Assembly (NCBI GenBank): GCA_002633005.1
Contig: NMRA01000016.1
Location: 524,300-588,299, forward strand
Length of the DNA stretch: 64,000 nucleotides
Source of the DNA: Phoronis australis
Taxonomy: Eukaryota > Animalia > Phoronida
Direction: 5' to 3'
Shown here: positions 460 through 56,894 of the stretch, in pieces
How the letters are laid out: every line of letters begins with the position of its first letter
Numbering within the stretch: position 1 is the stretch's first letter
Program-made: the position numbers and the translations under genes
The notes under the pieces: generated by a model
The model's database searches: none
The model's input: the letters and a program-made list of their open reading frames with translations, nothing else
What the model was told of the DNA's origin: nothing

Positions 460-2719
460 CTCCAGGATGGCTGGATGCTTGAGACGTGAGTGGATCTTCA
501 CTTCATCCTCTACTCTGGACACCATACCTGCCTGCTGCATCAATTTCTTGTCAATCTGAAAGGTCAAGAGGTCAAGTTAAGCGTACGTAGTTCATTGATG
601 AAACCTAATGTAAATGATAAAAAAACAGTTCATTTGACCAAGTGCAGGAATGACGCAACTGCCAAATTTCTACACACAACAGATAACTATAAAAGACAGT
701 GACAAAACAAATTACTGAGGCATTAACACATGTATATAAGATGCCTTAGCAGTCATTTGCTATATTCACACATGTAGAGTGGCATATTAGTGATACCACC
801 AGACAATTTCTCGAGCACGTCAGTCATGACCAAATGCCTTGCCTTTCAAAGTAAATATTATCAAAATCTTAAAATTTTTTAATGAAAAATGATCAAATTT
901 AGAGGCTCTTAAGTGAAAGTATACATTTATCAAGTCCTACCCAACCAATTTTTGTTTTCATCAACAATAAAAAGGCTATGCGCAGTTGAAGAAAGTGTGT
1001 GGTACAAACGTTGTTGCAAGTGAAGTAATGCAATGTAGAGAAACATGGTGCAACAGTACAGACCATTTTGATCGCCACTTCCTGCCCTGTGCCGATACAT
1101 TTTGCTCTGTACACGCAAGCGAATCCTCCGCGACCCAGGAGGTTCAAAACCTGGTAACCCTGCAAGCAACAAATCGTTAAACAACTGTCATCGCACGTTT
1201 CAAAATTTAGTGTGTGAGTACCAGAAGCCAGTCTCACACGAAAGAAATTTCTGATTTTCAACACACTGTAAAATGTGTCGTCCCCAGCATTTTTGTACTA
1301 GTATTCTTCTTACCTCCCATTTACCATTTTTTACAAATAATTCAAAACATGTAACTCGCAAACATTGCATCTTAACCACTTACAGTCAAGTTACCTGAAT
1401 ATCAGACGTTTTGGCAAATTTTGCATTATACTTAATTGGAAATACTACGGGTTGTTGTAAATTCTTTACTGAAATAAAGAATTACCTTTACGGAATTGTT
1501 CTGTTACTATATCTAGTCTCCTAAAGCCATATTTAATTTCTGACTGATCTTTATAAACAGCACAACTAGTAAATCCTCAGGGATCCCAAATATCGGAGAC
1601 CATGTTTCTGAATACACCACATTGTGGAAAACTGATAAACCAAGTAATTGGTTTAGGTCACCTTGTTGCCAATTTGCAGCTTATGTTTTAATATATTTGT
1701 TGCTAGAATACAGCTCTGTTCCCAACAAAATTATCCATAAAATGTAATATGATGACAGCACTGCATTGTTTCGATGAATCAGTGCAAATGACTAACGCAT
1801 ATGCAATCTCACTGCAGTTCTTAGTGTCTCTTTGTCTTCTTGATATGGCACACGCGTGTGTAGGGCCAGGGTTTGACTTGAGTTAAAAACAAATGAAAAA
1901 ATGAAACAGTGGAGCCTGTCAGTTAATTGAGATGATTTCATTGTGGAGAAAGATTTCGATTTCAACTTTCATAACCGTTTCATGCGATCATCCGTTTTGG
2001 ACCGACTTGGGGGTCTAAAGTGCACCTTCTCTTGTTGAAATCAAAACGAGACAAAGCTATAAAAATGAAAAGGTGCCGGACATTGAATGGATTACAGCAG
2101 AACGGAAATTGTTGTATTTTATTTCTCAGATTATACTTCAGGTAAGATTTTATAAAAATGTCCTATATTTAGGTCCGTCCGGTATTTAGGTACACTATCA
2201 ATGAGCTATTTTCCCAGGGCAGTGATTAAGAAAGGTCTTATACTTTTCTCGCATGCCTCCTAATCTTATAGGAACAGTGGTGCCACCTGGTATAGATTTT
2301 AATACCTTTGGCACACAATTTTACAGTATATTTCGTGAAATCGGTACATTTGCTATTGTCGCTCTGTCGGCAGTAAACACAAACACACACACTTAAATTA
2401 CAACAGGACGGTTTTGCTTAAGTTTCAGTGACCTCAGATTCCATACTGATTTTTTGTGCCCAACCTTTATGTTTCATCACAGTGAGTTGTGTCAGTGGTG
2501 ATCGAGGAATAGATAGACACAAGGGCCTGATGTCCAGATGAGGTTCAAAAAAAACTCCAAGTCAAAATCATCAAAAGTCAAAGAGCAAACAAAAGTCAAA
2601 ACGGATTCACTTCCTTTAAATTAGCAAATCCAGCATCTCTGAGAGCGTCAAAAAATTTAATTTTGAAATAATCCAATTCTTTGCTGTTCTCTTACCTCAA
2701 TAGAGTCCTTCATTTGCAT
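460..2719 (-). CDS. PLK4: Polo-like kinase 4 (PLK4/SAK), first three coding exons; gene continues beyond the window start
   Basis: Exons 2719-2696 (MQMKDSIE), 1159-1064 ([32 protein letters not shown]) and 555-460 ([32 protein letters not shown]). All junctions are GT-AG, phase 0. Matches the PLK4 kinase N-lobe as I recall it (human [24 protein letters not shown]...[37 protein letters not shown]). Confidence 0.93.
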
Positions 2720-20282
<17,563 letters not shown>

Positions 20283-44800: not shown

Positions 44801-47502
44801 GAACGCAAAATGATAATTTAGGAAATTGTAACGTTTTGAGATGTTGCCTTGAATACGCCAAACGAAATGTGGTCACGTGGTTGATTCAGTTTTGCTATAG
44901 CCACACCTTTCCTTAGTTTTTGCTAAATATTAATAAAAGGAAATTAATTAATGAGAGCTAATTGGCATAAAGTCAAAAATCAAATTCTACAGGCTTTCTC
45001 AGTGCTTTCAGTGAAGTATGTAATATTATTGAGTTAAACTTAATTCGTTTGCAGATTTTTGACCGAATTCACCGATAAGGTCCTAGGTAACCGTACAGCT
45101 TCTAAATAGCCCGAGTTCCGTCGTTGATCATTTCAGGTCTGCGTGGACTGATGTTGGCTGCCTTGTTAGCAGCTCTAATGAGTTCACTCACGTCCATATT
45201 CAATAGTGCCAGCAGCCTTGTCACTGTTGATTTATGGAAAAAGTGTCGGCCACAGGCAACAGAGGGCGAACTAATGATCGTCGGCAGGGTATTTGTCATT
45301 CTGCTCGTCGGCATCAGTATTGCATGGTTGCCGATACTGCAAGCGGCTGGTGGCGGCACTCTGTGGGACTATATGCAATCCGTTTCGTCATACATTGCTC
45401 CGCCGTGGTGTATATGCTTCGTTATGGGTGTATTCTGGACTAGAACGACAGAGCCAGTAAGTACCACTCGATATACTTGCCGATGTATTCGACTCCCCAC
45501 ACAGAAATTGTTTTCGACAGTTTCTAAATTAGTGTGTATATATGCATGCACTATGATCAATGAAACAATTTTAACAAATGCAGCAACAGGCATGCACATT
45601 ATTAAGCTACCTGCTTCATAGTCATGCGCGCACCCAGCCCGCTAAAACATAAAGGGGGGGGGGGGGCTCAAATTTTTCAGTATGAGGACCTTTTACTGAA
45701 AAAAAAACCTGGACTAAAAAACGAGGTACTACGTTTATACCTATGAATTGTGCATTCTTGCCGACTAGATTTCTGTGGACTTTTGTCTCGTTTTCTCGGA
45801 CTTCTTGTTTCTCGATCGAGGGGAACATTTTGCACACTGCATTCGAGCCCCCCTGGATACGCGCATGTTCACAGTGTAAACATAAGTAAGACAAAAATTC
45901 TTATTTACATTTACGTAAACAACTGTGCTCACTTTTCTGACTCACTCATGATGAGGAGCGCATTCACTCAAAAAAAGGGACAACTTGCACTGTGGAGGCA
46001 CAACGGGGCCATGGCCCCTGTTCATTGCAAAAAGCCCTCTCCTCTGTCGAAAACATTTTTCAGTATTGCGTTTGTCCCCTTCCTGATTGCTATGTGCCCT
46101 CATGTTGTACTGAATATCTGAATACATTGGTACTCATGTACCTCACTCGCTATGATCAATTGCAGGGAGCGTTCTGGGGTCTCATGGCCGGTCTGGTAAC
46201 GGGCGTTGTTCGTATGGTGCTAGACTTTGCCTACCCAGCCCCGCTGTGCGGCAGTCATGATGTTGACACGAGGCCGGATGTATTGTCTAAAGTTCACTAT
46301 CTCTACTTCTCCATTTTGTTATCGGCCATTTGTCTGTTGGTGACCACTGTTGTCAGCCTGCTCACGCAACAAAGAACTACAGAACAGGTAGGTGGACATT
46401 CCCATCGATTGCAACGAAGTGTGTGTATCTGACATCAATGAACATTGGTTTTGGCTGAACGCGGGCAAGAACAATAAAACTTTCACTATATTTAAAGTAA
46501 ACAGTGGTCCAGCAAGCCACCAGAAAGTGACAAATTAGGTTTAAACGCAGAAGAACTAAACGTCTCATTTCTAAGAAATGAACCCGCTGAATTACGATAG
46601 TCCTACATTGAATTGTAAATTTATTAGTTCAATTGGAGTAGATTTTTTTTGAATGATTACATTTCGGGCAAGTGCGGTTTTACTCAGTACAGATACAACG
46701 CTCATAACAAAAAATCTACTACTAACTTTGCCACAATTTGGAGCCGTTATTCTTTGAGAATGATCGCTTGTGGCGTTCACTTGATTTGATCATGGCGATT
46801 ATGACATTCCTCGCTTCAGCTACGTAAGGTCACTTGGTGGACTCGTCATGCGGATGAAGAACCTATCCTGACTGACGATGAAGATGACGACAGCGATAAT
46901 GATGGATACGTGGAGCAACTGGAGGTCGACAAGACGTCAGTCACATTACCAAGTATGTTCAATCATCACTGATTAATTGGTGAAATGCAAGAACGCCACT
47001 AAAACATAATAATTTATGAATTCACAATTTTCAAGGTTCAAACGATATATGCTCGTTCACAAAAACTGAAAGCACAATATTCCAGCAGACATGACAAATG
47101 CAATGAAAACAACAACGCATTTCGAAATTACTACAATAGGTCTATGGAGTGCGAATTTACACAAAAGACAGACGGAGTGGCTCATCCTAAACGTGTGTAG
47201 TACGTTTTCCATATTTATTAAGCGGTATACAGCAGAGGCATGTTCCATGAAAATTGACTCAAAGCTTAGTAAAAATTTGGTCTTATACTCCAGAGCGGCA
47301 AAACACTATAGGTGGCAAATGCCTGAAGTGGGCGTGTGGCCTGGCAGACGATCGGACGACTCACCGAACCAAAGCGGAGATAGCCGAAATGAGGAAGAGG
47401 CTGACTTCCATCGAAGAGAAACCGTTCTGGAAATCTGTTCTCAACGTCACGGCCATAATAGTTTTAACAGTTACGGTGTTCTTGTTTGGGTTCTTCGGTT
47501 GA
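38892..47502 (+). CDS. SLC5A sodium/sugar (SGLT/SMIT-like) cotransporter, about 652 aa, 12 coding exons
   Basis: Exons 38892-38969, 40386-40457, 40642-40746, 41347-41406, 41855-41959, 42122-42227, 43119-43423, 44292-44535, 45137-45456, 46166-46387, 46820-46952, 47294-47502. They total 1959 nt in frame. Family motifs: [90 protein letters not shown] possible non-coding first exon ends at 38520. AATAAA near 48345 and 48364. Confidence 0.93.
41082..41148. repeat. (ACA)n microsatellite in an SLC5 intron
   Basis: Imperfect run of ACA/AAC triplets. Confidence 0.9.
43566..43637. mobile_element. 72-bp mini-MITE (CATGGGCGGCG TIRs); degenerate relatives near 30905-30978 and 63067-63125
   Basis: CATGGGCGGCG...CGCCGCCCATG with internal GGGGGCTATAGCCCCCAC motif. 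Confidence 0.65.
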
Positions 47503-50898: not shown

Positions 50899-53800
50899 CT
50901 AGGTTTTGAAGCCGAGCGAAAACGCCACCTTGGGCCGGGCATTCTTCTTATTGAGTATAACCTCCTGCTCTTTTCTAACTTTCTTTTTCTCTTCATCCTC
51001 CAGCTTTTGTCGTTCCTCAAGCATTTTCCTTTGTTCTTCAACCAGTTTCAATTGCTCCTCAGCCTGCAAAAACAAAGACAGAAAATGTATTAAGCAAACA
51101 TAGCAGGCAATTCATTGATAATGAGACTTTAAGGACAGCATAAAACGAGACTTAAAAGGACAGTATAGAACCAGACTTTTCTGGGATTTATCAGTGAATA
51201 AATTCATATACTGGGTAACTGGCAACTAGGGCTTGGAATGACCAACGACAAAAAGAGGAAAATTTTCAGGTGTGTATCATTCCACACATAAGAAGGATTG
51301 TGTGATAGAAATATTTTTTGTATAGTAAAAACTGACTGACGTAAATGTTTGTGCATGAGTAATGTCAAAGTAATGATAAAGAAGCCATGAAAAAGAGAAA
51401 ACCAGAACTCGAATACGAGGAAATTGAAACCAAAAAGAGGACATCATCTACAAAGAGGAAAATTCCAAGTCCTGGACAATGAGATCCCCGCTGTTACCGT
51501 CAATTCAGTATGCTCATGTCAGACAAGCTGCTGACATCAGAAAACAGACTAAGCTGAAGACAGTGCATACAAGACATTTTGACGAATACGAGGCACTTGT
51601 TGGCTAACACTGGGTCTTCAGGTAACTCAAAAAAAGGAAAAGGACCGATTGTAGTGACTACTGCCACAGACGCACATCCGACAATAGGAGTTGTAGTCTG
51701 ATGATGTCTAGAAATCCAATACGAGGAAATTGAAACCAAAAAAGAGGACATCCTATACAAAGAAGAAAATTCCAAGTCCTGGGCAATGAGATCCCGGCTG
51801 TTACTGTCAATTCAGTATGCTCATGTCAGACAAGCTGCTGACATCAGAAAACAGATTAAGCTGAAGACAGTACATACAAGTCATTTTGACGAATACAAGG
51901 CACTTGTTGGCTAACACTGGGTCTTCAGGTAACTCAAAAAAGGGAAAAGGACCGATTGCCACAAACATACATGTACACCCGACAATAGGAGTTGTTGTCT
52001 GATGTCACAAATCTACCAGGTTGTGTGTTTATAGAATACGTTGTTGGTGACCTATAGCATTGCTCTGAGGTGTGTATCAAACATTCAACATCATCATTTA
52101 AGGATATTAAACTTAGTGTCTATCTCAAACCCAGATGACCGTGCACCAAGTGCTTGCATAGGGGACCAGTTGATTCTTTAACCTGCTAACAGCCACACTG
52201 CTTTCAACACATGTAGTGACCAGTTTCTTAGTTTAGTTCTCAGCAATAACAAAATATCAGTTTTCCAAAGACCAGAAATCACTTCTAACCATGGTAAAGA
52301 ATAAGCCGAGACAAATTTAAGACAGGCAAGCACTCATCTTTCTAAAGACTTGACGTTTTTCCATGACAAATAGCCCAAAACAGTGTTTTGCGACACCTCT
52401 CAACGTGCAATGAACACAATTTTTGAAGAATGTGCCTGTTTACAGCAATTCAACTGGTAACTAGAAATTCTGATTTTTATGACTGAATAAACATGGAAGC
52501 AAAACAGAGTACCATGTTCAAAATAAACGGACAGCACAGTATCAAATTGTATTACTGAATATACGCTTAACTTCATGATGTGACCATGGTCAAACTTTCA
52601 AGATACATCAGATAATGTCAATGATTAAAAAGAAATTTAAACAAGTGTTATTAGGAACACCAACTCACAGTAATAAAAAACGAAAGGTTCTGCCACAGAA
52701 CAATGGTTTTAAAAAATGACAAATGCACAGGGATTTCAAACCTCTTGGTGCACACGCATCTTTCAAGTCGTGACCTAAAACGATCTTTTCTTTTGGCTAA
52801 AAGATCAGTTCAAAGTGATTCAATCAAAAATCACCAATTGGAATAGTTCAAACACTGAAAACTATCGACACAAAAAAGTAAAATAAAAAGCCTCAAGCTA
52901 AACATGCCAATGTCAGTTTAAAAGCATCTCAGCACAAGCAACTGAAAATTATCAGTCGTTTGCTGGCGAAAAGGAATAAACTTACAAGCTTCCTTTGAGC
53001 TTCTTCAATTTTTCGATTATTTTCCTCCATGATCTTTTGCAGTTCCTCATGTTTTTTGCGCTCTTCCTCCTACAAAACATGTGACTCAGATAACCAATGC
53101 CGACCAGCGGTTTAATAGGGAACCCCCAGTAGAACAAGACTAGTCTTAACGAGCGGTTAATTAAATTTGGGAATCTCAACGTTACCACACACACTAAGTC
53201 TTTACTGAACGAGACTCTTTTGCTCAGGTTCAATCACCACTGACCACATGAGCACTCCGTGAACGTTTGATTGAATTGACGTCTAACACTGCGTAACTTT
53301 TTACTTTGTAACCTCTAGCCATACCAAGGACTGGTGTAAATGGTAAAAACTAATGAAGTTAAGACAAACTTGAGGGAACCTGAGCATAGTGTGTCCTTAC
53401 TCGACTAACGCATTTGTCACAAATACGAAATGAATAAAAAAATCCCCCCCAGAATGTAGTAACAAAGAGGACATAGCAAAACACCTGTAATTACACTAGC
53501 AGAGGCCACAATACAAATAGAAATACCTGCGTCGGCAACTTACTACACAGACGTAGCCTGCTATGTAGTGTCTTCTTTGCTTCGAGCTGTTGTGTTTTAG
53601 GAAACAAGTAACAGATTAGCCCCCTAGGGTCGCCTGGCGCCAACACATGGCCAGATTAACAGGCATAAATCAGTTGGCTTACCTTACAGAGACTGCTCAG
53701 TGAGAAAAACTGATCCGCACAGACTATAGCTCACGTTATGCCACATATACAAAATAGCAAACAAAGGATTAATATTTTGACAAAACTACACTATATTATC

Positions 53801-56800
53801 AAGGAGACATCTATTACTGCTGTAAATTACTAAATTACAGCGACAAAAAAAACAAAAAAAAAAACGGCATCTCACTGGACACAATCCGAATTGTCGTATT
53901 AGTGGATAACAGACTAAAAAAATGTCCTGTAATACAACACCAACATCGAGACTTTATGACATCACTTATATCGGACGTAACTGCAAAGGAAAGAGTCTGC
54001 ACATAGTAATCACACGGGTATCTGCTTGCGAACTGGGCAAACGGGAACAGGCAGAACAGACCAGCATTTTATCCGCAACTTGGCTGTCTGCACCAATACA
54101 GACCGCCAACAAAACAAAATCAGCGAAGCAATACATGGACGTGTAGGCAGCAAGGCAGCTAAGACATTGGTCTGTTTATTTGTGGTCTGCATTGATGCAA
54201 AATTGCGAAGAAAACAATGCCGTGTCGCAATGTTCCCTGCATTAATTCAACCTGAGCACCCATTTGGGGCACACGTAACATAATGAAGTGTGGTGGCAAG
54301 GGGGGCGGGGGCGGGGTGGGGGCGGGCAAGGAAGTAAAAGAAGTTGACTTAAGATGTAGCAATGGACAGGTGTAAATAAAAAGGAGTCGAATGAGACTAC
54401 TAAGCCTTCCTATAAAGACGACTCAGTGATTAAAGCCAACAGCCCAATGCATGCGAAATGCAACTGTTTGTTCTCAACTTAGGACTTCATTAGATAAGCA
54501 GGCATGACAACTGAACACTCCAGGTGATGCAGTTACATAGGCAGTGATCCCACCACACTTCATCAGCAGCAGCAGCAGCAGTAACGCAATAGAAAGCATG
54601 GACCACTACCTCCTTCAGCTTCTGCTCTGCCAGTTCCGCCTCCCTTTTCCTCTCCATCTCTTCCATTAGCTGCGTCTCCATCACGCGCTTGGCCTCCTCT
54701 ACCCGTCGTTTCACCTCCGCCTCGATCTCGTCCTTTCGCTTCTCTAATTCCTCCTCCACTCTCTGAGCCACTAACTCTTCCACTCTCCTCGCAACTTCCT
54801 CTTCTATCAACTTCTGCTCCATTTCCTTCTGCCGTCTACAATACCAAACAAACCTGGGTCACAGACTGTAAGCATGGGTGGGACTAAACAATTAAGCCCT
54901 GGACTCGACAATAATTCGACTGGCTCTCTCAGTGAACAATGACTAGACTCCCTCAACATTGTGACAAGAGGTCAGTACTGTGCTTACACCCACTGTGGGC
55001 TGAACCACAAAGTCAAACAGTCCAGCTCCCTCTCTGAGATCACAACTAGAAAAAGGATATGATGGGCTTGGACTGAGTTGTAAACCTCAGTTGACTGAAG
55101 ACAGAACGTTGGAGATTGACTGCTCAACTGCACTTCCACCATAATAAAACTACTGTAGAAACACTTCAGATCTAGCACACTCACAATAGCCTTTGTCTCT
55201 CAATCTCCAAAAGCTTGTCTTCTTCCTCTTCTTTCCCATCCTCAGATTTCTGTGCTAGACTTGGGGCGCGGCCAAATATGTCCGTGTCACTGTCAGAACT
55301 GCTGGATACTGAACGCTTCCTGTAAATAGACAAAGACGAGCATAACAACCAAGTCTCATCAACCATATGAGTGTGTACTGAAAAAGACTGTACATGGGCA
55401 TACTCGGGGGGGGGGGGGAAGTCTCGGGGGGCTTGAACGAGCCCCCCAATTTGCCGAAGTGGGCAAAAAGGTCTGCCTCAGTGAAAAAAATCCAAGTAAA
55501 CGACACAAAAGTCCACAAAGTACACAGGAAATAGGCGCAGGTGCACAATTCGTAGGCCTCAACGTAGTGGCCCCGTTATTTTTTAATCCCCATATCGAGA
55601 AATTTGAACCCCCCTATGTTGTAGGCTGGGTGCGTGCATGCTGCATCATGTACTCCAGTAGTCAGAGTCTGCAGTTACTAAACCTAAAACTACAGTCATA
55701 GTTCAGAGTATTTGGTAATGAGTATTACTGACATGAACACTTAAGTTGGCAATAGATTAACTGCTAATTTTCCCTCCATTTCTGCTTTCGCCACTGAACA
55801 AAGCATGCTGTGAAGATCAAACCAGGAGTGCATTACCTAGAGACGCAATAAACTTGCTACACAAAATCGCACCAATGAAAGGCAAGAGTTTTGAGTGTGT
55901 GGTAATAACCTTACTTGCAAAATGACGGCCACTTAAGTGATTGGTCAGTGAGGTTAGAATGCTCAATTACAAAATGAAATTCATTATTTAAGAACTGTGA
56001 GCAAGATTTCTCGCCACACATGCATCGTGCCTTGAGTCTATGGAGTGCAGCCCCTGAAGAAACACATTTTTCACCATCACTATCATCAAAAGAATATTGC
56101 CTGCCAAGTAGACAGTGACACCGTCTCTAGCTGACTATAGACGGTGTAGCTCCCATAGGAGCTTTATACGCCGGAAGCTTTTCGGCAAGTTATGCCTCAC
56201 AGTCACACTCACTAAAACATCAAAGTCGTGTAGATATAAATACCTTTTGCGCATACAGGGACACCTTAGGAGGCCGTTGATGTATGCAATTCCTTCCAAC
56301 TCAATGAAATACTTCTGTGGGAAGCTTCCGGCGTATGACGTTCCAGTATAGGAGTTACCACCGTCTCTAGTTAGCTAGAGACGGTGGTCACTGTCTACAA
56401 GTCGAGTTCAGGCAACCAGGTACCAAGTCCAATTAAATACGATCTTCATATGCAGTGGAAAACTTTATTAATGGCATCTAAAGACCAATTCTCACACTTG
56501 CAAAATTTGGCGGCAATGGACTGGTGAACCACGTTAAAACTATATCGAAGACGCCTGAAAGAAACCACACTCGAGACTAATCAAAGGAAGGGAAGTTGCG
56601 CTTAATTTGCCAGATGTTCACTATTAGCCAAGGAGACATGATAAACACGTTTACACGATCTGCGTGTCGTTTTTTCTTGATACCATTGTAATGTGCACAC
56701 ACTAGACTAATTTTAAGGTAGGCCTAAGCTAAAATCAGAAAACCACCAAACCTGCTGCGTTTCTCTCGCGACCGCGATCTATGTCTGGTTTTACGTTTAT

Positions 56801-56894
56801 TGTTTCGGTCTCGGGATCTTGATCTGCGTTTCTTGTGTTTGCTTTTATGTCTAGAACGACTGTGTGACCTGCTGCGACTTCTTGAGCGACCCAT
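50899..56894 (-). CDS. ARGLU1: Arginine- and glutamate-rich protein 1, about 250 aa, 5 coding exons
   Basis: Exons 56894-56752, 55319-55185, 54835-54610, 53069-52986, 51063-50899, totalling 753 nt. RS-rich N-terminus [10 protein letters not shown], Glu-rich coiled coil [44 protein letters not shown]-terminus [19 protein letters not shown]. Confidence 0.95.
51227..51474 (-). mobile_element. Reverse copy of the CAGGGCTTGGAAT TIR family
   Basis: TAGGGCTTGGAATGACC...ATTCCAAGTCCTG, flanked by GGCAAC and GACAAT (GGCAAT in the duplicated copy). Confidence 0.75.
51412..52005. repeat. ~300-bp tandem duplication in the last ARGLU1 intron
   Basis: 51412-51717 is repeated with high identity at 51718-52005 and includes one end of the MITE. 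Confidence 0.9.
53527..53586 (-). other. Candidate alternative/poison exon of ARGLU1
   Basis: Sense strand: branch-like GGCTAAT, pyrimidine tract, ...CACAACAG|CTCGAAGCAAAGAAGACAC.... Donors GTAAGT (after 53544) and GTATTT (after 53527). An extra strong donor AAG|GTAAGC lies at 53682. Confidence 0.6.
56108..56398. mobile_element. MITE with ~75-bp TIRs containing internal hairpins; related fragment at ~4427-4630
   Basis: GTAGACAGTGAC...GTCACTGTCTAC. Each end carries an ACCGTCT(N)AGACGGT hairpin. The internal sequence (GCCGGAAG..AGTTATGCCTC..GACACCTTAGGAG) recurs in HSP110 intron 1. Confidence 0.8.

Follow-up and report, generated by a model that had tools for sequence, protein, structure and literature searches.

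Strong retention of the ARGLU1 intron at the position of vertebrate intron 2, and a variant-poor cluster of cryptic splice sites within it, in Phoronis australis

The stretch of DNA analyzed here (the window) comprises 64,000 nucleotides of Phoronis australis contig NMRA01000016.1. It contains, on the minus strand, an ARGLU1 gene of five exons with a predicted product of 250 amino acid residues. The exons and the intron of interest are as follows.

56752..56894, minus strand: ARGLU1 exon 1, coding part, with the RS-rich start; the RNA extends to about 56958
55185..55319, minus strand: ARGLU1 exon 2, 135 nt, from read joints
54610..54835, minus strand: ARGLU1 exon 3, 226 nt, equivalent to vertebrate exon 2; profile match to PF15346 positions 1-71
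53070..54609, minus strand: retained intron, 1540 nt, between the 226-nt and 84-nt exons, from reads
52986..53069, minus strand: ARGLU1 exon 4, 84 nt, equivalent to vertebrate exon 3, from a profile match and read joints
50899..51063, minus strand: ARGLU1 last exon, coding part, from a profile match and read joints

Three of the exons tile positions 1-149 of the Pfam model PF15346 (ARGLU), the 28-residue exon by itself scoring slightly below the cut-off (26.4 versus 27 bits). The product thus combines the RS-rich N-terminus and the PF15346 C-terminal domain by which the ARGLU1 family is recognized. Named matches to the 226-nt exon are ARGLU1, with identity up to about 80%, and all four junctions of the gene are supported by RNA-seq reads. 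A low-resolution tree of this exon (75 columns) places it outside the supported vertebrate group and leaves it otherwise unplaced.

A previous sequence-only reading had put the intron following the 226-nt exon at the position equivalent to vertebrate ARGLU1 intron 2, and human exon-end mutagenesis primers bear this out: the boundary of intron 53070-54609 is the codon boundary between human exons 2 and 3, in phase 0. Read-through proteins of many animals diverge from the alignment at the same residue as the end of the 226-nt exon, and a GT is present at this exon end in the fetched loci. Human intron 2 is intron 3 here because this gene has an extra intron upstream. As a vertebrate copy we used locus L005, since its exon peptide is identical to named amniote proteins and its full intron matches, on visual comparison, the human sequence of Figure S4 in PMC5389617. 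The human primers, L005 and the window agree in placing the intron that holds the ultraconserved element (UCE) in vertebrates between the 226-nt and 84-nt exons. Judged from the coding sequence on either side, intron 53070-54609 is the positional orthologue of vertebrate ARGLU1 intron 2.

Elsewhere in the window there is an HSP110/HSPA4 exon at 17643-17915 (plus strand), with no match above 68% among those listed. Exons at 45106-46432 (plus) and 899-1297 (minus) probably encode parts of a sodium-solute symporter and of a protein kinase. Rfam returned nothing apart from a sub-threshold match to mir-5681 on both strands of a palindromic stretch in ARGLU1 intron 1 (56346-56398; 35 versus 88 bits), which we take as likely due to chance.

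Splicing of the gene was followed in three stranded raw-read runs from one study, 18-19% of each being used, and in one contig run (X1) from another study. Only intron 53070-54609 is strongly retained, on the sense strand, and the remaining introns are removed. Its junction is covered by 22, 18 and 4 spliced reads in the three raw-read runs, and the other three junctions by 154/157/73, 146/126/116 and 264/202/110 reads; the retained-intron junction thus reaches 0.12, 0.11 and 0.04 of the mean of the others. Depth in the intron amounts to 87, 87 and 92% of exon depth at the 3' boundary and to 61, 80 and 81% at the 5' boundary. Sense-strand coverage spans the whole intron, at about 33-290 in its 3' two thirds and 5-105 in its 5' third, and is lowest at a skipped repeat, while repeat-free bins of the neighboring ARGLU1 introns have a depth of 0-2.5. 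This is retention within otherwise spliced RNA, one of the features of a detained intron. In X1 the relation is reversed, with a depth of 453 at the spliced joint and of 123 for the intron contig; contig depths are an unreliable guide, and retention may vary by sample or library.

Some features of the coverage deserve mention in their own right. At 54174-54574, in the 5' third of the intron, depth is 2-4 times below that of the 3' part, and no joint or start site explains the drop; the low values in this third might stem from 3' bias or from poor mapping at repeats and indels. Repeat elements at 51228-51780 (intron 4) and 55440-55620 (intron 1) attract reads from both strands, with many loose ends.

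The prediction that retention of the 5' part of the intron meets a stop at 54490 proved correct when the frame was recalculated: the read-through of the retained form ends there, 1504 nt before the remaining junction. Since the retained RNA is abundant despite this stop, nuclear detention or escape from nonsense-mediated decay (NMD) would be indicated.

The terminal donor of the retained intron, GAG/GTAGTG (the slash marks the splice point), has 5/9 consensus letters and is the weakest in the gene. Well inside the intron lies a cluster of splice-site-like sequences.

53677..53685, minus strand: strongest donor-like site of the gene, AAG/GTAAGC, 8/9, with the GT at 53682; from sequence, no reads
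53587..53620, minus strand: branch-like GCTAAT (53620) and weak acceptor with 11/20 pyrimidines; from sequence, no reads
53544..53586, minus strand: predicted 43-nt frameshifting cassette, with NMD geometry if spliced; unseen in reads
53527..53586, minus strand: predicted 60-nt in-frame cassette; unseen in reads
53544..53633, minus strand: second predicted cassette, of 90 or 107 nt, following an acceptor at 53634 and carrying an in-frame stop itself; unseen in reads

The putative mini-intron 53682-53587 measures 96 nt and ends in the acceptor CACAACAG/53586; the candidate downstream donors are GTA/GTAAGT at 53543 and CAG/GTATTT at 53526, and CACTGAGCAGTCTC is found at 53702. On the minus strand the 7-mer branch motif has five copies, and every other motif named for this cluster, including CACTGAGCAGTCTC and the acceptor, occurs once. 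The 43-nt form would reach a TGA 61 nt ahead of the last junction, and the 60-nt form would stay in frame and give 270 rather than 250 residues. All of these motifs, positions and frames had been described correctly in the sequence-only reading; the acceptor at 53634 with its 90- and 107-nt exons is an additional candidate. Several competing cryptic sites of the kind found in decoy exons are therefore present at the level of sequence.

The individual elements of the cluster are common. Among 2000 dinucleotide shuffles of the intron, 497 contained an 8/9 donor by the U1 consensus and 545 a simple cassette. A branch, an acceptor and two downstream donors were found together in 50/2000, and in 8/2000 when the upstream donor was added; both of the latter figures are flattering, the layout rule having been drawn up after the layout was known. 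By the same rule, the other three ARGLU1 introns have no comparable cassette. Donor-like sites of 7/9 are present in other introns of the gene too.

Splicing at these sites was not seen in the reads. No joint or loose end was recorded at 53683, 53586, 53544 or 53527 in any of the four runs, where depth was 110-200 and joints with 3 or more reads were listed, and focused read mapping of the intron found the canonical joint only. The junctions by which the cassette would be joined (54610>53586, 53683>53586 and 53544/53527>53069) likewise did not appear with at least 3 reads in these runs, in which NMD was not blocked. Steady-state use of the cryptic sites is thereby bounded at roughly 1.5-3% per run, for runs with no recorded NMD inhibition. 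According to PMC5389617, the human ARGLU1 exon is barely visible unless NMD is blocked with emetine, and thus the missing reads are compatible with a poison exon here.

Variation among the reads singles out the same part of the intron.

53404..53894, minus strand: variant-poor block of 491 nt with 2 listed substitutions, from read variants

Within the best-supported 40 of 90 variants, this is the longest stretch with at most 2 listed substitutions (scan p 0.0015), and the 261-nt block 53460-53720 carries 1 of 37 intronic substitutions versus 6.3 expected (p 0.009; p 0.010 when the comparison is restricted to the well-covered part of the intron). These statistics come from 40 of the 90 variants and from few, linked haplotypes, which weakens them. 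The variant-poor block coincides with the cryptic splice-site cluster. Special folding of the block was considered and rejected (whole block z 0.02). A sliding scan with 25 shuffles predicted stems at 53449-53370 (minus strand, z -5.0), adjoining the variant-poor block, and at 54209-54080 (minus strand, z -2.9), also within the retained intron.

The sequence-only reading had further proposed conservation of this block at the nucleotide level between vertebrates and an invertebrate. Alignment over the whole element proved borderline to non-significant and did not uphold this proposal. BLASTN of the intron against L005 gave no match better than E 1.4, and where a UCE would show at least 200 nt at 95% identity with vertebrates, the best ungapped match to L005 is 19/25.

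53518..53542, minus strand: best match to the mammalian element, 19/25 nt to L005 intron 1802-1826, spanning the second cryptic donor; from alignment

The differences in this match are mostly transitions, and 53542-53518 is the best place for the matched 25-mer in 128 kb (both strands of the window), the 25-mer itself having been chosen from about 480 possible ones. Its HOXD70 score was equalled by 7/300 shuffles and 32/636 natural windows, and 19/25 was reached by 10/160 windows; under other scorings, 22-120 of 300 shuffles equalled the match. With L005 as the one vertebrate copy, the p value for homology lies at about 0.02-0.06 with the most favorable scoring and at 0.07-0.4 with the others. 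The window ranked 11th of 29 whole introns against the UCE, and L005 ranked 9th of 29 against the block of the window. Among the motifs that had been proposed to match the vertebrate element, the CAG/GTAT donor occurs in the L005 intron with 1 mismatch, in two places. The others did not stand: CACTGAGCAGTCTC has no match in that intron within 3 mismatches and CAGCTCGAAG none within 2, and AAGAAGACAC has only 2-mismatch matches, all outside the element.

An alignment with cheap gaps recovered four collinear anchors at similar spacing, namely the start of the UCE, a CACT branch-like motif, CAG/CTC and the GCAG/GTATT donor context. An alternative alignment pairs the cassette with the 58-nt exon and the same donor with human SS5. 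The two registers are incompatible, which suggests that consensus splice signals make up much of the resemblance. In L005 the matched stretch forms one arm of a hairpin (z -3.6), and this hairpin before the cassette is not formed in the window (equivalent z -0.6). With one vertebrate copy, power is limited, so that descent is unproven but not excluded. As far as these sequences go, the likeness is more likely to reflect shared splice signals than nucleotide-level conservation, and it is doubtful that block 53783-53518 and the vertebrate ARGLU1 UCE share one ancestral element. If they did, one could follow a feedback circuit based on a decoy exon through the sequences of vertebrates and an invertebrate, and the event as such through all animals.

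To place the intron in a wider context, we collected 80 further loci. Five were dropped (the exon match ended early), and in 26 of the remaining 75 one of the two introns could not be scored. Eight divergent loci (L067-L071, L075, L077 and L080), which we take to be plant-like, were set aside; they show 44-45% identity, and in them, too, this position is occupied by an intron, 85-524 nt in length. The intron position, judged by these sequences, may predate animals. This left 41 animal-type metagenome contigs that allowed scoring of this intron as well as the next one: 23 keep both, 8 neither, 10 only this intron and none only the next. The 10 contigs keeping only this intron form four similarity groups. 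Genomic loss of the next intron could account for such contigs; this is less likely for L025-L030, since their relative L023 has the next intron, and retained-intron transcripts are favored there over intron loss. A G at +5 of the donor of this intron is found in 3/19 selected animal loci versus 19/19 at the next donor, counts that are not independent because kin share such traits. Weakness of this donor may in itself be ancient.

Other lineages have conserved blocks inside this intron that are unlike the block of the window. Compared by BLASTN with 64 ARGLU1 introns from other loci, the intron gave low-complexity or short matches only, and profiles built from the blocks of L008/L012/L014/L017 and of L046-L060 had no match to the window or to L005 at E up to 10. 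The 25-nt match between the window and L005 does not recur in the other invertebrate introns examined. A match of the block to L041 (z 3.8) was one of 29 comparisons and lies in a T-rich branch-like stretch; we did not accept it as homology. The top words of a k-mer enrichment over 20 lineages fit multiple testing and dinucleotide bias, and a search with exon 2 found no relative.

There is also some resemblance among these loci at a pair of vertebrate donors, SS5/SS6. In the conserved block of L008/L012/L014/L017 there are two donors at a spacing of about 12-14 nt, ending GGTGAGA, which resemble this pair (L005 intron 1960-1985, L008 1430-1470, L012 1155-1195, L014 1380-1420), and L008 and L005 share 11 identical letters at the site. 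The L046-L060 group has a GGTGAGA site within its conserved block; the window has none. A broad profile did not match L005.

We lean, with moderate confidence, towards a detained intron under decoy control, in which the variant-poor cluster of unused sites stalls removal of the intron, likely as part of ARGLU1 feedback. The observed starting point is that most ARGLU1 transcripts in the three raw-read runs keep this intron, on the sense strand, and have lost all the others. The genuine donor of the intron is weak, and the sequence 390-620 nt before its acceptor offers a donor of greater strength, a branch site followed by a weak acceptor, and a further pair of donors. U1 and U2 would assemble on these cryptic sites and compete with the real ends, leaving splicing uncompleted. 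The retained RNA would be kept in the nucleus, as its being the main form despite a stop 1504 nt before a junction suggests, and rare inclusion of the 43-, 90- or 107-nt cassette would be cleared by NMD. By analogy with the human gene alone, more ARGLU1 protein would lead to more retention. The retention event is likely old in animals, and the sequence carrying it is probably lineage-specific.

In an alternative explanation, the weak terminal donor alone would suffice for retention, with the internal sites incidental and the block constrained otherwise (by protein-binding sites or structure) or by chance. Its rank as the weakest donor of the gene, the rarity of a +5 G here compared with the next donor in the animal loci, the 7/9 donor-like sites in other introns and the lack of cryptic junction reads all suit this explanation. 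We nevertheless consider it unlikely: the donors of introns 1 and 2 have only 6/9 and yet are cleanly spliced, the variant-poor block overlaps the splice-site cluster, and in the human gene retention persisted when the exon 2 donor was strengthened and was relieved when the element was deleted (PMC5389617). More improbable again is a cassette that serves mainly as a poison exon, often spliced in, removed by NMD and invisible at steady state, with retention as a by-product. The NMD geometry of the 43-, 90- and 107-nt forms, the identical frame shift given by 43 nt and the human 58 nt, and the need for emetine to see the human exon well (PMC5389617) speak for such an exon. At a depth of 110-200, however, there are fewer than 3 reads per run and no half-spliced intermediates, and the 60-nt in-frame form, which would escape NMD, is likewise unseen.

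A much smaller chance attaches to an unregulated origin of the intron signal, from unprocessed pre-mRNA, genomic DNA or a transcript of its own. In favor of such an origin, library selection is unspecified, X1 is only presumed to be RNA, and depth in the 5' third of the intron is 2-4 times below that in the 3' part. Against this, the reads are from the sense strand only, the other introns, including the last one, are near zero, exon-exon reads are depleted about tenfold at this junction, and no pile-ups of starts or ends were found.

The decoy-controlled reading has close counterparts in the literature. Vertebrate ARGLU1 intron 2 holds an ultraconserved element, a detained intron and a 58-nt NMD exon, and splicing of the human gene responds to the level of ARGLU1 protein (Pirnie et al., PMC5389617). 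Multiple competing sites are described in the human retained intron (PMC5389617, PMC6097662). The window shares with it the gene, the intron boundary and strong retention in otherwise spliced RNA, and the two introns have in common a cluster 400-600 nt before the acceptor, a GCTAA branch, a weak acceptor, a frameshifting cassette length (1 mod 3) and several donors. They differ in that sequence similarity is not significant, the hairpin is missing (z -0.6 versus -3.6 in L005), the intron is the third in a gene of five exons, no cassette reads are seen, and feedback and nuclear detention are putative for the window. On the favored reading, the intron works like that of vertebrate ARGLU1 at the level of the event; the sequence definition of the UCE does not cover it.

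Decoy exons in retained introns have been described for SF3B1 (E4e), OGT, DDX39B and ARGLU1 (Parra et al., PMC6097662). The intron described here resembles them in having a cryptic cassette, competing sites, a retained intron of more than 1 kb and an RNA-processing gene as host. Evidence for those cases comes from junction reads obtained with NMD inhibited, from U2AF binding and from minigenes, whereas this one is known from sequence and retention. Pan-animal elements have been reported as well, namely a pseudo-5' splice site in ENOX1/Enox (PMC13100119) and a branch-hiding stem-loop with a poison exon in SF3B3 (PMC11162794). They provide a precedent for short splice-signal-like motifs kept in a homologous intron from vertebrates to invertebrates; their motifs were traced through many species, whereas here there is one borderline 25-nt match. 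ARGLU1 was not found in the supplement text of PMC13100119, and in the available supplement of PMC11162794 it appears 4 times, two of these being human rows for the terminal acceptor. PMC5389617 describes the ARGLU1 element as vertebrate-only, and the ARGLU1 detained intron is a standard case of decoy-exon control. In the literature searched, we found no paper on retention of the ARGLU1 intron in an invertebrate.

Retention of the same intron in an invertebrate, with signs of it in other animals, suggests that this control point is far older than the vertebrate sequence, and that the controlling sequence has been rebuilt or eroded in each lineage. The ARGLU1 intron thus offers a cross-species test of what a decoy needs.
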